A stretch of 64,000 nt of DNA from an uncultured delta proteobacterium (GCA_963696385.1 CAVOKF010000003.1:512001-576000), one strand, 5' to 3'; numbered from the stretch's first letter, positions 15,001 to 21,000 are shown. Program-made: the numbers.

Positions 15001-18000
15001 ATTCCCCGGCAGAGAGCAAGCACACGCTTGCGGTTCGTCGTGAACGTGTCGTCCTTGATCTGAAGCATCTTGACCGGCGCCCGCGCGACCGCCTTCTCGA
15101 GGGCATCGAGCACGTACGGAACGGACTGACCGCGGTAGCCCCGCCCCCAGCTCGCCTCCGCACCGCAGAACGTGCAACGCCACGCGCAGCCGCGCGACGT
15201 CATCACAATGTGCGTGTCGAAGTAGTCGTGCACGGAAGCGAGCGCGTCGAGATCTTCGATCGCTGCCCGCTTTGGCGCAACGGCGAGCCGATGCCCATCC
15301 CGATAGACCGTTCCGGCGATGCCGGCCGGGCTCTCGCGCCGCTGCAATCGGTCGAGGATCTCGAGAAAGGTCTGCTCGCTCTCGCCGACGGCGATCGTGT
15401 CGATGTCTTCGTGGTGCGCGAGCATCTCTCGCGCGAGTGGCGTCGCGTGAGGACCGCCAACGACGACGTGCGATCTCGGGTGGATGCGCTTGATCTCGCG
15501 CGCAACCAGGGCCACCCCGCGCCGATTGGCCGTCCAACACGACAGGCCGTACACGTCGGCCTCCAAGACACCGATCGCGTGCTCAACGTGCCGCCAGGGA
15601 TAAGCGGATAGGTTGATGACCTTTACCGAATGTCCGGCGCGAAGCGCCTGCGCCCCGAGTGCGAAGAGACCGTACGGAGTCTGGAAGAAATCGCCGTCGA
15701 GGTCGCCCTGCGCGTACTCGGTCGGAGGCCCGTCGCCGAGAGGGTCGGGGGCTTCACCCGGCAAGGGGATTTTCCACGGGGGTGGGTACAACAACGCAAC
15801 GCGCATCCGGAGAAGCATTGTAGCTCCGGGCCGACGCGTTATGTGCAGGGCTTCACTTGGACGGAACCTCTTGCCCTCTCCGGCCCGGCGCGCGCCCCCA
15901 CGTCGGCCTCGGCGTGAACGACACGCAACGGCTGCCCCGCGGCGGGCGAAGGGGAAAAAGACCGATGGCCATTCCGCTCGGCAGACTCGCCTCGCTCCGC
16001 GCCGTTCCGAACCGCCGCCCCGGCTGGAGCCGCTCGACACGCTCCCGGATGTTCGCAAACATCTGCCACGCGAGGTCACCACCCCCCCGATGACCATCCT
16101 CGTCGTTGCCGAAAAGCCAAGCGTCGCGCGCGACATTGCGCATGTGCTGGGGGCCCGCACCCGGTCCGAAGGCTACTTTCACGGCCCCGGTCACATCGTG
16201 ACATGGGCCCTGGGTCACCTCGTCACGCTGGCCGAGCCGCACGAGATCCATCCCGCGTGGAGAACTTGGCGGCTTGCCAATCTCCCGCTTCTTCCCCCGG
16301 CGTGGCCCTTGGTGGTCGCCGAAGGCACGCGCGCCCAGTTCGAAGTGGTTCGCAATTTGCTGCTGTCAAGCGAAATTCGCACCGTCATTTGCGCTACCGA
16401 TGCGGGTCGCGAGGGAGAGCTCATCTTCCGGTACATCTACGAGGCGGCCGGCGCGACCAAGCCCGTTCGCCGTTTGTGGATCTCGTCGTTGACGCCGGAG
16501 GCCATCGCCGCTGGCTTGCGTACGCTCAAGGATGGGAGCGCGTTCGACCGCCTCGCCGATGCAGCTCGTGGTCGCAGCCGCGCAGACTGGCTGGTCGGGA
16601 TGAACCTGTCGCGAGCGTATAGCGTCCTCCACGACGACAACCTGTCGGTCGGACGCGTGCAGACGCCGACGTTGGCCATGGTCGTGGAACGCGAGATCGG
16701 GATCCGAACCTTCGTGCCCGAGGATTATCTCGAGGTCGTCGCGACCTTCGGCCCGCAGACGCGCGATTTCGATCCCGACGATCCGAAGAGGGAGCGCCAG
16801 ACGTACGAGGGGACGTATCTGCGGGGTGGGACCCGTGAGCGAGACGCGCAGCGCCTGCCGCCGGACGGCAAAGACGCGGCCGCGATCGTCGAGCGCGCCC
16901 AACGCGGCTTCGCACGCATCGAGTCGATCGATCGTCGTTCGCGACACGTGCCGGCACCGGCACTTTACGATCTGACGGAACTCCAGCGTCATGCAAATCG
17001 GATCTACGGGTTTACCGCGCAGCACACGCTCGAGGTCGCGCAGACTCTCTATGAGAAATGGAAGCTTCTGAGTTATCCGCGGACGGACAGCCGACACCTC
17101 TCGAGCGCCGTCGCCGAAACCCTCGCGGCGGTCGTCGGAGCGATCGCCGCTCCCTACCAGGGGCTTGTCGCCGAGGGGACTGGGACACGACCGCTCGGTC
17201 CCCGCTTCGTAGACGACGCACGCGTCACCGACCACCACGCGATCCTTCCGACCGCCACCGTGGCCCCCGCCAGCCTGCCCGCAGACGAGCAAGCGATTTA
17301 CGATCTGGTATGCCGGCGCCTCCTCGCGGCGTGGCACAACAATCACGTCTACGCCGTGACGACGGTGCTCACGACCGTACAGTGGAACGCCGACCGGGAC
17401 CGCTACACGAGCGCGGGAACGAGCATCGAGAACGTGGGGTGGCGCGCGTTGGACCCCCAACCGGCGGGGGCCTCCGAGACTCGTCCGAAGGAAGGCCCAC
17501 GCGCCCCGGACCCATCGTTGCCGGGCGGCCTTGAAGCCGGTCTGCCTCGGCGCGTGGTCAACGCCAGGTCGGTCGCCAAGAGGACCCGACCGCCGCCGCG
17601 CTTCACCGACGGCACGCTGCTGACGGCGATGGAGACAGCGGGACGAACCCTCGACGAAGCCGAGGTCTCTCGTGCCATGCGCGAATGCGGCCTCGGCACA
17701 CCCGCGACACGGGCCGCGATCCTCGAGACTCTGGTTCGACGCGAATACGTCGTGCGCGAGGGAAAGACGCTCCAAGCGACGGACAAGGGAGTGGCGCTCG
17801 TCGAGATCGTGCATGAGCGCGTGAAGAGCCCCGCGATGACGGGCGAATGGGAATCCAAGCTTGCGCGGATCGAGCGCGGCGAGGAAAACCTCGCAAACTT
17901 CATGCGCGAGATCGAGATCTACGTCCGAGACGTCGTGGCAAGTGTGGCGTCGGGCACAGCGACGAGCGCCGGTCCCGATCGCGCGCCCGCCGGAACCCCA

Positions 18001-21000
18001 GCATCCCGCTACGTCCGAGACGTCGTGGCGAGTGGGGCGTCGGGCGCGGCGACCAGCACCGATCCGGATCGCCCGCCCGCCGGAACGCCGACACACCGCA
18101 CGGCGCGGTCGAACGACCTCGGCGTTCTGCTACGGACGTCGTTCGGCTTTCCCTCGTTTCGCCCGTACCAGGAAAACGTCTGCGTCGCGGCAGCGACGGG
18201 CAAGGACGTCCTTCTCGTCATGCCGACCGGCGCCGGCAAGTCGCTTTGCTATCAGCTTCCGGGCATCGCCCGCGGAGGAACGACACTCGTCGTGAGCCCG
18301 CTCATTGCGCTGATGGAGGACCAGGTCGCGCAGCTCTCCCGACGCGGCTTCGCCGCCGAGCGGATTCATTCCGGCCGCAATCGCGCAGACTCGCGCGCCG
18401 TATGCCGGGCTTATCTGGACGGCGCACTCGACTTTCTTTTCATCGCACCCGAGCGCCTCAAGGTACCCGGGTTTCCGGAGATGCTGGCGCGCCGCAAGCC
18501 CACGCTGGTGGCGATCGACGAAGCGCACTGCATTTCGCAATGGGGCCACGATTTCCGGCCCGACTACCGGATGCTGGGAGCACGCCTGCCCCTTCTGCGT
18601 CCCGCACCGGTCATCGCCCTCACAGCGACGGCAACCCCGATGGTTCAAGGCGACATCGTCGACGAGCTCCGACTCGAATCGCCGATGCGCTTCATTCACG
18701 GATTCCGTCGAACCAATATCGGCGTCGAAGTGATCGAACGAAGCCCGGGCGTCCGCGCGGACATCGTCCAGCGCCTGCTCGATAAAGCCGAGCGGCGACC
18801 GGCCATCGTCTACGCGCCGACTCGCAAGGAGGCCGAACAGCTTGCTCAAGAGCTGTCTCCGCGATTGCGCGCCGCTGCCTACCACGCGGGGCTTCGCGCC
18901 AGCGCGCGAGACGACGTCCAATCGGCGTTTCTCGGGGGCAAGCTCGACGCGATCGTCGCGACGACCGCGTTTGGAATGGGCATCGACAAGGCCGACGTTC
19001 GCCTGGTGGTGCACACCGCCCTACCCGCCTCCATCGAAGGGTACTATCAGGAGATTGGCCGCGCCGGACGCGACGGGAGGCCTTCGCGCGCCGTACTGAT
19101 CCATTCGTTCGTCGACACGAAAACACACGAGTTCTTTCTCGAGCGCGACTACCCTGACGCGAGCGTACTCGAGCGAGTGCAGGATGCCCTTTCGGCCGAC
19201 GCGAAATCCATCGCCGACGTCGCCGTGCGTTCTGGGGTGCCGGCCCCGGTCTTCGAGAAAGCGCTCGAGAAGCTCTGGGTCCACGGCGGTGCCCTCGTGG
19301 ACCCCGACGATACCATTCGGCGCGGTGGCGCGGACTGGCGCAGTGCCTACGAACGGCAGCGCGTTCACAAGAGCGAGCAACTCGCCAAGATGCGTCGCTA
19401 CGCGGAAACTCCCTCGTGTCGCATGCTTGCTCTCGTGGCGCACTTTGGCGATCTCAACGACCACGGATCTCCGTGCGGACTTTGCGACGTCTGCGCCCCT
19501 TCCGCGTGCGTCGGGCAGGCCTTTCGGAACCCGAATGCCGCCGAGCAACGCGCGGCGGCGCGCATCCTCGCCGCGCTTCGCGAGCGTGACGGACGGCCCG
19601 CGGGTCAACTGCACCGAGACCTCTTCGGCAACGGCGAGCTCGACCGGCGCTCGCTCGATCATGTGCTGGGAGGCCTTGCTCGATCGTCGCAGGTCACGAT
19701 CACCGGAGACGAGTTCGTGAAGGACGGCGCGACCATCGCCTTCCAGCGCATTTACCTGGGGCCGGCCGGGCGAAAGGCCGACACCCTTGCCGCGACCGAG
19801 ATCCGCATCGCCGTGGTTCCCGACGGCGCGCCTCGCGGAAGCCGGGGCAAGCCGGCCAAGCGAGGCGCCCGCCGACACGGGGCGCCTCCAGCCGCGAAGA
19901 GACGCGACAAGGATTCCGCGCAGCTCAACCATGTCAACCCGTCGAAATCAAGGGACGAAGCCTCGTCGCTCGAAGGAGCGCTGCGCGCGTGGCGCACCAA
20001 GGAAGCGAAGAGACGCGGCGTGCCTGCGTTCCGCATCCTCACGGACCGTACCTTGCTCGGAGTCGTGCGCGCGCGCCCAGCCGACGAAAATGAGCTCCTC
20101 GACGTCACGGGAATAGGGCCTACGCTCCTCGACAAGTACGGCCGTGAGCTCTTGGCGATCGTCGCCCAATCGGAGGCGTGAGTGAGGAGAAGCCGATGGC
20201 CTGCCCGACTCAGGGCGCCGTCCCCCACGCAATAGTGGCGCCGATGTCGACCACGATATGCATGTTGGCGGTGAGCTTCGTGTCGTCCATGGCATTGTAC
20301 GAATAGTCGTTCGTCTGCGCGAACTCCATCGAGTAGCTCGGGTCGTGCAGCTCGCCCTTGAAGTAGAAGAAATCTCCAACCGGCACCGAGCCTGCTGCAC
20401 CCGTAAACCTGATCGTCAGTACGCTGTCGGCAGTCGCGGTAGATGGCGTGAAAGCGCTGACCGCGCCCGACACGGCTGCGACCCCAACCGCAGCGTAGGC
20501 ACTGCTGGCGGCGTTGTTGATATACGACGTGTAGACGTCGAAAATGAATCCAGAAAGACCGTCCGCTACAAAATAGTATTTCACGCTGACGGTGCTCAGA
20601 TCCAGCGCGGTCGTCCCCGTATTGACGATTTCAATCTCGAACGCTGCGCCACCGGTTTTCGTGGCATTGTCGGACTCGTACGTCAGCTCGACTGCACACG
20701 TCGTGCACGGGGCAGCCGCCTCCAGCGTCGATGCATCGTCGAGCGCCGACCCATCCTCCAGCGTCGATGCCTCCTCCGTCGTCGACGCATCCTCGGGCGC
20801 CGACGCGTCCGTGGCACTGCTGCTCTCGGAGCTTGTCTGCCCACCGCCACCCGAAGTGCCGGCGTCGTCGCTACTGCTCGATGGGGCATACACCGCGCTG
20901 TTGCCGGTCGACGAGGCACTCGAGCTTGGAACGGGTGCGGACGAAGCGGTCGATGCTTGCGTGACGGGTTGGGCGGTCTTGGCTACGTCGCCCGTGTCGG

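Follow-up and report, generated by a model that had tools for sequence, protein, structure and literature searches.

A single open frame on the plus strand of the window, the 64,000-nucleotide stretch of an uncultured delta proteobacterium analysed here (GCA_963696385.1, CAVOKF010000003.1:512001-576000), encodes a protein of 1363 aa in which the terminal stop is the sole stop. The frame stays open 5' of the ATG at 16090, as far as a TTG at 15613; translation from the ATG yields MTILVVAEKPS, and this start aligns both with the N-termini of relatives and with E. coli Topo III at its residue 3. The protein has two parts, a type IA topoisomerase III core (residues 4-608) and a RecQ helicase (residues 680-1358). 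Re-translation and a Pfam search bear out what a preliminary description of this DNA had reported: one uninterrupted frame, the domain coordinates of both halves, and the order topoisomerase-helicase, opposite to that of reverse gyrase. The locus comprises the following features.

16090..20181, +: Topo III-RecQ fusion gene, stop codon included (open frame, translation, domain matches)
16099..16488, +: Toprim domain, residues 4-133, holding E8 and the D104-A-G-R-E108-G-E110 motif (Pfam PF01751)
16546..17904, +: topoisomerase IA core (Topoisom_bac), residues 153-605 (Pfam, 347 bits)
17074-17076, +: catalytic Tyr329, in SYPRTD (motif alignment)
17914..18141, +: low-complexity linker of 76 residues (609-684), from the last topoisomerase helix to the RecQ N-terminal helix
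17919..18086, +: in-frame 90-bp tandem duplication inside the linker (Tandem Repeats Finder, 1.9 copies, 88% matches)
18160..19077, +: RecQ motor, RecA-like domains (Pfam; DEAD 691-849, Helicase_C 891-996)
19159..19323, +: winged-helix-like insert between RecA2 and the zinc cluster, about residues 1024-1078 (AlphaFold model)
19345..19494, +: RecQ zinc-binding module (RecQ_Zn_bind), residues 1086-1135, with Cys1110, 1129, 1132 and 1135 (Pfam PF16124)
19537..19758, +: winged-helix (RQC-like) domain with a long beta-hairpin, about residues 1150-1223 (AlphaFold model, Foldseek)
19837..19953, +: disordered basic stretch N-terminal of HRDC, about residues 1250-1288 (pLDDT <50 at model residues 572-610; composition)
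19978..20163, +: HRDC domain, residues 1297-1358 (Pfam PF00570; helical bundle in the AlphaFold model)

The claim of a full topoisomerase III part holds. Besides the Topoisom_bac match, the protein passes two curated Topo III models, NF005829 (619.5 against a cut-off of 597) and TIGR01056 (523.9 against 515.75), and the closest solved relative of this half is E. coli Topo III (1d6m/1i7d; 278-280 bits over residues 4-607). Y329, within LSYPRTDS, aligns with the ITYPRSD motif of the E. coli enzyme. Across 35 fusions of 34-74% identity, E8, D104, E108, E110, Y329 and R331 are invariant, and so is H382/383. The Toprim motif reads D-A-G where E. coli Topo III has D-P-D, the second Asp being replaced by Gly; this form is not specific to fusions, because 49 of the 52 stand-alone Topo IIIs compared have it. 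The stretch of the E. coli enzyme that we take to be the Topo III-type insert ('decatenation loop'), around its residues 502-519, is matched by fusion residues without a long gap and with a less basic charge. Unlike E. coli Topo III, the fused enzyme has no tail of its own past the core. The linker that follows is not conserved: it measures 41-156 aa among 23 relatives and 19-367 aa (median 53) across 202 fusions, and is rich in A, P and S. The duplication within it is visible in the protein, where residues 611-640 and 641-670 are identical at 23 of 30 positions.

The helicase half had been called a complete RecQ. This stands for the motor, zinc module and HRDC, found by Pfam, and for the winged helix, seen in the AlphaFold model, but Pfam detects no RQC winged helix in the fusion protein and the match to the NCBI RecQ equivalog TIGR01389 is broken into three stretches and falls below its cut-off (479.4 against 640.2). 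The RecQ family model TIGR00614 is passed (386 against 219.8), as are the Pfam thresholds for PF16124 (34.9 against 25) and PF00570 (67.2 against 23.8). On sequence grounds, the helicase is a member of the RecQ family and not a strict E. coli-type equivalog. Its closest solved relative is E. coli RecQ (1oyw, 302 bits, residues 680-1009), and the motor motifs are readily located: motif 0 with Q694, Walker A with K717, DEAH at 810-813, and motif VI with Q987/R991/R994. Among the same 35 fusions, Q694, G714/G716/K717/S718, DEAH 810-813, W818, R823 and Q987 are invariant, while the conservation of the four zinc cysteines is complete or at least 90%. Not all relatives have HRDC: the Labilithrix type, of about 1240 aa, is one that lacks it.

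The AlphaFold model of the RecQ half (mean pLDDT 89.6, pTM 0.84) places the RQC-like winged helix and its beta-hairpin at elements 472-545. In Foldseek, about 587 of its columns align to the cores 1oyw and 4tmu, with TM-scores of 0.71-0.73 when normalised by target length, and BLM is the top match. The modelled insert consists of helices 346-355, 363-370 and 374-386 and strands 390-392 and 397-400 (RecQ-half numbering; pLDDT >88). It appears to be an addition relative to E. coli RecQ, in which Pfam and PDB sequence alignments reveal no counterpart.

The host genome (6.94 Mb in 8 contigs, 96.4% complete) has two loci with PF01131, the fusion gene and one for a Topo I-like protein with Cys-rich repeats at its C-terminus, and a single locus that passes TIGR00614, again the fusion (374.8 bits; the runner-up scores 65.9). 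These searches agree with the earlier statements that the genome has no Topo III and no RecQ besides this protein and that Topo I is its sole further type IA enzyme. The fusion is also the sole RecQ-family match in four of five other fusion genomes examined. No neighbour is conserved: no gene for a helicase, TGT, ParB-like protein or nuclease recurs in the flanks of 14 relatives, and neither these flanks nor the neighbours in the window include an RMI1-like OB-fold partner. We found no mobile or defence context around the gene, whose setting is chromosomal and non-mobile. One RNA run searched for its transcript gave short pieces only 90-95% alike, probably from relatives.

The architecture is widespread. 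The best 120 database relatives of residues 400-900 all carry PF01131, PF00270 and PF00271 in proteins of 910-1441 aa and include Labilithrix luteola and Pendulispora albinea; the repeated search agrees in this with the preliminary description, whose count of 115 with PF16124 becomes 116 of 120. In a Myxococcota sample of 401 genomes, the host included, one match spans the junction in 25, within open frames of 1167-1990 aa. This reproduces the previous figure of about 25, but that figure is an undercount: 14 further genomes have single-frame fusions whose match was split by the linker, which brings the total to at least 39 of 401. Similarly, the 4 of 29 reported for Polyangiaceae is correct for junction-spanning matches in the 29 other genomes of the family, but rises to 5 of 29 with split matches. 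Single-frame fusions also occur in Acidobacteriota (Solibacteraceae, Bryobacter; 4-7 of 301 genomes), in Bradymonadales and in a MAG labelled Zetaproteobacteria. They are likewise present in an Oligoflexus MAG, in whose phylum 15-22 of 131 genomes have them. Conservation in part of the Myxococcota_A was hence rightly claimed, but the range was drawn too narrowly, as it covers at least three phyla. Both halves are present in 65 of the best 150 cluster representatives (50% identity), with the topoisomerase first every time. The distribution of the fusion is wide and old. The DNA occurs in soil, wetland and peat metagenomes.

Phylogenies shed light on the history of the two modules. In the topoisomerase tree, 50 fusions split from 52 stand-alone Topo IIIs at one branch (SH-aLRT 98), which fits a single origin of the fused modules. 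The two halves have co-diverged. In the RecQ tree, the stand-alone RecQs of some Polyangiaceae and Acidobacteriaceae are nested among those of fusions, and this nesting points to a later loss of the topoisomerase part in these lineages. Four close relatives (G075, G230, G080, G070) have the RecQ alone and no Topo III at all, so the topoisomerase half is dispensable in some lineages. Six fusion genomes (G293, G258, G263, G045, G383, G063) keep a separate Topo III as well.

Unlinking of DNA by a RecQ helicase and a type IA topoisomerase is the job of separate proteins in E. coli, with RecQ and Topo III (and SSB), and in eukaryotes, with BLM-TOP3A-RMI or Sgs1-Top3-Rmi1. Two papers describe the RecQ ATPase as activating, and as required for, the catenation and decatenation of DNA by Topo III (PMC13760219, PMC5714178). 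Our results suggest, with a probability of roughly 0.7, that RecQ and Topo III here form a covalently tethered machine, the product of one chromosomal gene. Its predicted function, likely given its domains and conserved residues, is that of a tethered decatenase or dissolvase. As we infer its enzymatic activities, substrates and module coupling, the C-terminal RecQ module, with its two RecA-like domains, zinc module, winged helix and HRDC, would bind forked, gapped or four-way DNA and spend ATP on unwinding or branch migration. The N-terminal Topo III module, which a floppy linker of 40-150 residues would hold nearby, would take up the single-stranded DNA so exposed, cut one strand via Tyr329, pass another through the break and reseal it. 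Hemicatenanes, late replication intermediates or converging Holliday junctions could thereby be unlinked without crossover. The fusion would guarantee 1:1 stoichiometry and co-localisation with no adaptor, and in this sense might deserve the label of a 'ready-made dissolvasome'.

E. coli RecQ and TopB, the closest solved sequence relatives of the two halves, are separate proteins, whereas the fusion is one chain with a disordered linker. The eukaryotic dissolvasome (BLM-TOP3A-RMI1/2, Sgs1-Top3-Rmi1) resembles it in pairing a RecQ helicase with a type IA Topo III, but the attachment there is non-covalent. According to PMC3905885, the yeast helicase recruits the topoisomerase to its N-terminal side, which is the relative position that the topoisomerase has in the fusion.

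Could the frame be an artefact, in which a sequencing or assembly error merged adjacent topB and recQ genes, or which stays open by chance? The host genome is GC-rich, at about 66%, and long spurious open frames are numerous in it. Yet at least 38 further Myxococcota genomes of the sample have the frame free of internal stops, the fusion is found in named MAGs from other phyla, and its presence in 120 of 120 best database relatives draws on many sources. In addition, contigs from independent public metagenome runs cross the linker ungapped, one over 17400-18653 with 0 differences and another over 17400-18568 with 4, although one of the runs may be the window's own source. With the co-divergence of the halves, these observations make an artefact hardly credible. 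Alternatively, one half might be a non-catalytic scaffold, the topoisomerase merely targeting RecQ to single-stranded DNA, or RecQ merely loading the topoisomerase without unwinding. The clean loss of the topoisomerase half in several lineages would fit such a role, but both halves keep all their catalytic residues invariant or nearly invariant across the 35 diverse fusions, and we regard a scaffold as improbable.

Two other readings assign the protein a different task. A mesophilic enzyme resembling reverse gyrase would have tightly coupled modules and use ATP to change supercoiling directionally, for example to positive supercoiling, instead of unlinking. The module classes are identical (an SF2 helicase and a type IA topoisomerase), and reverse gyrase clusters appear among the more distant look-alikes in the ESM Atlas (score 0.86). 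However, the domains stand in the opposite order, the TIGR01054 model of reverse gyrase reaches 103 bits against a cut-off of 471.7, and reverse gyrase chains match with merely 60 bits, within the topoisomerase part. The helicase moreover has the zinc module, winged helix and HRDC of a full RecQ, the DNA turns up in metagenomes of soil, wetland and peat, and the linker, being long, disordered and variable (19-367 aa across relatives), argues against a fixed module interface. Such an activity is thus quite unlikely. Less likely again is a component of phage defence, such as the DpdF-like helicase of a Dpd-type restriction island, in place of housekeeping repair. This idea arises because the PADLOC model PDLC02865 ('DpdF') matches the protein with 1635 bits and other 'DpdF' and 'PsyrT' models match its RecQ part. 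The label is, however, a broad one, since several 'DpdF' models reach about 430-500 bits on the plain RecQ part of the protein, and the NCBIfam DpdF model NF041063 scores 198 against a cut-off of 550. Dpd models have no match among the 19 neighbouring ORFs in the window, where the one hit is a weak match of the candidate model PDC-M51A to the radical SAM gene, and the relatives' flanks show no Dpd context. DpdB (NF041060) and DpdG (NF041064) were not found in the host genome, a result with no positive control, as 14 control genomes were equally silent. The fusion shares just the PADLOC label with the Dpd 7-deazaguanine restriction system.

In this soil bacterium, topoisomerase III and its usual partner RecQ are encoded as one long protein, and many bacteria of at least three phyla keep the fusion. 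A more far-reaching and rather doubtful proposal combines three elements: that the covalent enzyme is ancestral to a RecQ clade of at least three phyla, that truncation of it gave rise to the stand-alone RecQs of Acidobacteriaceae and some Polyangiaceae, and that it has an emergent activity absent from the separate E. coli pair, for example dissolving double Holliday junctions or hemicatenanes processively, as a single polypeptide and with no adaptor. If this is true, the enzyme would be the minimal natural dissolvasome and, coming from a mesophile, would contradict the notion that reverse gyrase alone fuses these units. PMC7245102 states that hyperthermophiles 'uniquely' fused helicase and type IA topoisomerase units as reverse gyrase, and this was the sole such fusion that we found in the literature searched; ours differs in its opposite order, a true RecQ with accessory domains, a flexible linker and a mesophilic habitat. 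The preliminary description had suspected that the architecture might be visible in databases without a paper. This proved accurate: although the literature searched yielded no study of a natural Topo III-RecQ fusion, a public HMM has already captured it, the same PDLC02865 (PADLOC-DB, 2023), whose 1499 positions span residues 3-1236 and which must therefore have been built from topoisomerase-RecQ proteins.

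Our analysis showed that window 16090-20181 on the forward strand holds a single open frame of 1363 codons, which joins a topoisomerase III (Topo III) to a RecQ helicase, in that order. The frame is open upstream as far as a TTG at 15613. Translation from the ATG at 16090 begins MTILVVAEKPS, a sequence that lines up with the beginning of E. coli Topo III and the N-termini of relatives. The domains are as follows.

Features of the fused gene (residues of the protein, Pfam, unless window positions are given)
4-133, Toprim
153-605, Topoisom_bac, 347 bits
window 17919-18086, in-frame 90-bp tandem duplication in the linker, 1.9 copies, 88% matches
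691-849, DEAD
891-996, Helicase_C
1086-1135, RecQ_Zn_bind
1297-1358, HRDC

The N-terminal half exceeds two curated Topo III cut-offs of NCBIfam (NF005829, 619.5 vs 597; TIGR01056, 523.9 vs 515.75) and the C-terminal half that of the RecQ family (TIGR00614, 386 vs 219.8). The protein stays below the NCBIfam equivalog for E. coli-type RecQ (479 vs 640) and far below the reverse gyrase model (103 vs 471.7). Among solved chains, residues 680-1009 come closest to E. coli RecQ and residues 4-608 to E. coli Topo III, and no single one matches both halves. In three relatives (loci L034, from genome G384, and L043, and genome G124) the open frames reach 1597-1990 aa, with 270-520 stop-free codons preceding the topoisomerase start. 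Since these extensions lack any Pfam domain in L034 and L043, they are probably open frame ahead of the true start and not translated.

Both enzymes look alive, judging from the conservation of residues in 35 aligned full-length fusions that are 34-74% identical to the window protein. Invariant positions include E8, D104, E108, E110, Y329, R331 and H382/H383 on the topoisomerase side, and Q694, G714, G716, K717, S718, D810-E-A-H813, W818, R823 and Q987 on the RecQ side; each of the four zinc cysteines is invariant or conserved to at least 90%. The Toprim D-x-D of E. coli reads D-A-G in the window protein, and likewise in 49 of the 52 stand-alone Topo IIIs compared, so this is a trait of the Topo III lineage rather than a loss specific to the fusion. 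By alignment, the protein also has a stretch that we take to be the counterpart of the E. coli 'decatenation loop'. An AlphaFold model of residues 679-1363, made from a 48-row alignment (mean pLDDT 89.6, pTM 0.84), shows two RecA-like domains and then an insert of about 55 residues, winged-helix-like, that precedes the zinc cluster. After the zinc module come a winged helix, a disordered basic stretch and the HRDC bundle. This second winged helix carries a long beta-hairpin and is the RQC domain missed by Pfam. In a Foldseek search of the PDB, this half best matches BLM and the catalytic cores of RecQ from C. sakazakii and E. coli, with target-length normalised TM-scores of 0.71-0.73 over about 587 columns.

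The single-chain Topo III-RecQ enzyme is real, old and widespread. Public metagenome contigs cross the linker with zero gaps, one run being possibly the source of the window, and the junction stretch is present in soil, wetland and peat metagenomes of 14 studies, as fits a mesophile. Both the topoisomerase and the helicase families are present in each of the 120 database relatives listed for residues 400-900 (61-92% identical; NCBI, JGI, ENA and Logan). A single RNA run was found, with 5% of the sampled words, and its three short contig pieces, 90-95% alike, probably come from relatives and do not count as transcription of the gene. The preliminary description held the gene to be the only RecQ and the only Topo III of its genome, and profile matches bear this out as far as an incomplete assembly allows (8 contigs totalling 6.94 Mb, 96.4% complete). 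PF01131 occurs in two places, the fusion gene and a second gene whose translation is Topo I-like with Cys-rich C-terminal repeats, and the fusion alone passes the cut-off of the RecQ-family model, the next-best match reaching 65.9 bits.

The same architecture recurs in several phyla. Among 401 Myxococcota genomes, the present one included, one match crosses the junction in 25, which recovers the earlier count of about 25. That count was too low as a total, because BLAST of both halves identified single-frame fusions in 14 further genomes where the match is broken by the linker, giving at least 39 of 401. Five of the 29 other genomes of the family Polyangiaceae have the fusion, two have a stand-alone Topo III, and in 21 of the 29 no Topo III match reaches E <= 1e-60. 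Single-frame fusions were verified in a Polyangiaceae MAG, two Solibacteraceae MAGs, and one MAG each named Bryobacterales, Bryobacter, 'Acidobacteria', Oligoflexus, 'proteobacterium' and Bradymonadales. Junction-spanning matches were found in four of 301 Acidobacteriota genomes, with three more candidates (frames of 1204-1359 aa), and in 15 of 131 genomes of the phylum of the Oligoflexus MAG (1040-1358 aa), where another seven show matches of the RecQ part within frames of 1262-1481 aa, one of them verified as a fusion. Among the best 150 representatives of 50%-identity clusters, 65 have both halves (30 of them full length), and the topoisomerase part is always N-terminal to RecQ; one divergent fusion representative is labelled Zetaproteobacteria. 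Six ESM Atlas clusters have the same family set, the three printed ones counting 322, 96 and 70 members. The fusion is on record in two named species (Labilithrix luteola and Pendulispora albinea) and in hundreds of environmental genomes. Six genomes with a fusion (G293, G258, G263, G045, G383 and G063) have, in addition, a Topo III that stands alone, in frames of 926-961 aa; hence the fusion is not always the sole Topo III. A contig titled as a Klebsiella pneumoniae MAG, a label that looks doubtful (L083), has a 45% identical Topo III in a 987-aa frame. Its tblastn match reaches query residue 1004, but a RecQ part was not found in any of its frames of at least 300 aa.

Trees of the two halves tell how this distribution may have arisen. 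They come from quick IQ-TREE searches (LG+G4) on rows chosen by similarity to the query, with several long branches and an assumed root. In the topoisomerase tree (50 fusions with 52 stand-alone Topo IIIs, of which 20 are from the same phylum), a single branch (SH-aLRT 98; 97 in a smaller set) sets the fusion modules apart from the stand-alone enzymes. In the RecQ tree (85 rows, with the root on five actinobacterial sequences), one clade with support 99 unites all 51 fusions and 21 stand-alone RecQs. Fusions occupy the basal branches of this clade throughout, and the stand-alone RecQs of Acidobacteriaceae and several Polyangiaceae are nested within it. Constraining the fusion RecQs to one clade costs 294 log-likelihood units (AU p ~1e-96). 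The stand-alone RecQ of genome G075 is the sister of the fusion of G175, from the same genus, at 79% identity. By tblastn, no topoisomerase remnant was found beside the stand-alone RecQs (nothing under E = 0.8), and four genomes with a stand-alone RecQ have no Topo III anywhere. The simplest reading of these sequences would be one fusion event, after which the halves co-diverged, transfer took place between phyla, and the topoisomerase module was cleanly lost at least six times. The fusion and a stand-alone RecQ can also coexist, as one Polyangiaceae MAG has both a fusion (L043) and a separate RecQ of the nested clade (L058).

The two halves are joined by a low-complexity linker (residues 609-684) in which A, S, T and P are abundant. 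The equivalent stretch is unconserved in 23 relatives (41-156 aa), and in 202 fusions the linker measures 19-367 aa (median 53), with 16% A, 15% P and 13% S. The unit of the 90-bp duplication comprises the end of the last topoisomerase helix (YVRDVVAS) and the start of the linker. Such variable and unconserved sequence argues for halves that would behave as beads on a string rather than meet in a rigid interface. Predicted docking of residues 1-612 against 680-1067 scored 0.00 and is uninformative either way. The clamp-binding motif Q..LF was rejected as a general linker feature, being present in three of the 202 linkers.

From bacteria to humans, RecQ helicases work together with type IA Topo III, in humans as BLM-TOP3A. 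There is still debate over the coordination of the motor with the strand-passage gate, in part since the complexes are multi-subunit and transient. By inference, the fusion is most likely a tethered decatenase or dissolvase of recombination and replication intermediates. What is new is the single-chain form; the partnership itself is known, and this is no new kind of system. A natural single-chain version with both active sites apparently intact would help the study of motor-gate coordination, as an adaptor-free 1:1 complex for biochemical, single-molecule and cryo-EM studies. Linkers that naturally vary from 19 to 367 aa provide a ready-made series on tethering versus coupling, and lineages that have lost the topoisomerase half are natural controls.

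In the full-text literature, with most subscription journals outside coverage, we found no published description of a natural Topo III-RecQ fusion. In the accessible portions of PMC8185306 and PMC5714178, 'Topo III-RecQ' is a pair of separate proteins, and an excerpt of PMC13760219 states that the RecQ ATPase activates catenation by Topo III. According to the abstract of PMC7245102, hyperthermophiles 'uniquely' fused helicase and topoisomerase units, as reverse gyrase, which is also the sole fusion mentioned in the available part of PMC6878951. The present fusion qualifies that statement of PMC7245102. It could also simplify in-vitro replication systems, to which Topo III and RecQ are now added separately, as described in part of PMC5714178.

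A different role might be suggested by the PADLOC model PDLC02865, labelled DpdF (the helicase of the 7-deazaguanine restriction system Dpd), which matches residues 3-1236 with 1635 bits; the architecture was thus already in a public model library in 2023. We found nothing in support of a Dpd role. The 19 neighbouring ORFs have no Dpd matches, a search of the genome for DpdB and DpdG, which lacked a positive control, gave neither, and the score falls short of the curated DpdF cut-off. Among the PADLOC-DB models PDLC02855-PDLC02872, one covers Topo III together with RecQ, and several that bear the DpdF label reach about 430-500 bits on an ordinary RecQ core, so the label alone can mislead annotation.

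The fusion gene stands alone, between a divergent gene on one side and a convergent one on the other.

Surroundings of the fused gene (window positions)
14004-c.15820, minus strand, B12-binding radical SAM protein with C-terminal TPR repeats, divergent
16048-16063, 16-bp palindrome GATGTTCGCAAACATC, 27 nt ahead of the ATG
20210-21160, minus strand, CBM_3 cellulose-binding domain protein, convergent
24172-26862, minus strand, glycogen/carbohydrate phosphorylase, 996 bits

Neighbour genes vary among 14 relatives, in which we found neither a conserved operon partner nor a recurring SSB, OB-fold, nuclease, integrase or defence neighbour. The palindrome has one near-copy elsewhere in the genome, within a coding frame, and was not found upstream of four relatives of the family. 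It was dropped on these grounds as an SOS or other operator, and may be a private operator or chance. The B12-binding radical SAM gene weakly matches a candidate model of PADLOC (PDC-M51A, 30.6 bits). In two relatives (L028 and L033) there is a YmdB-like phosphoesterase gene upstream of the fusion, and in three others, from two families, a TetR-family regulator stands directly upstream on the same strand (L023:2213-2842, L026:1735-2442 and L029:7640-8251).
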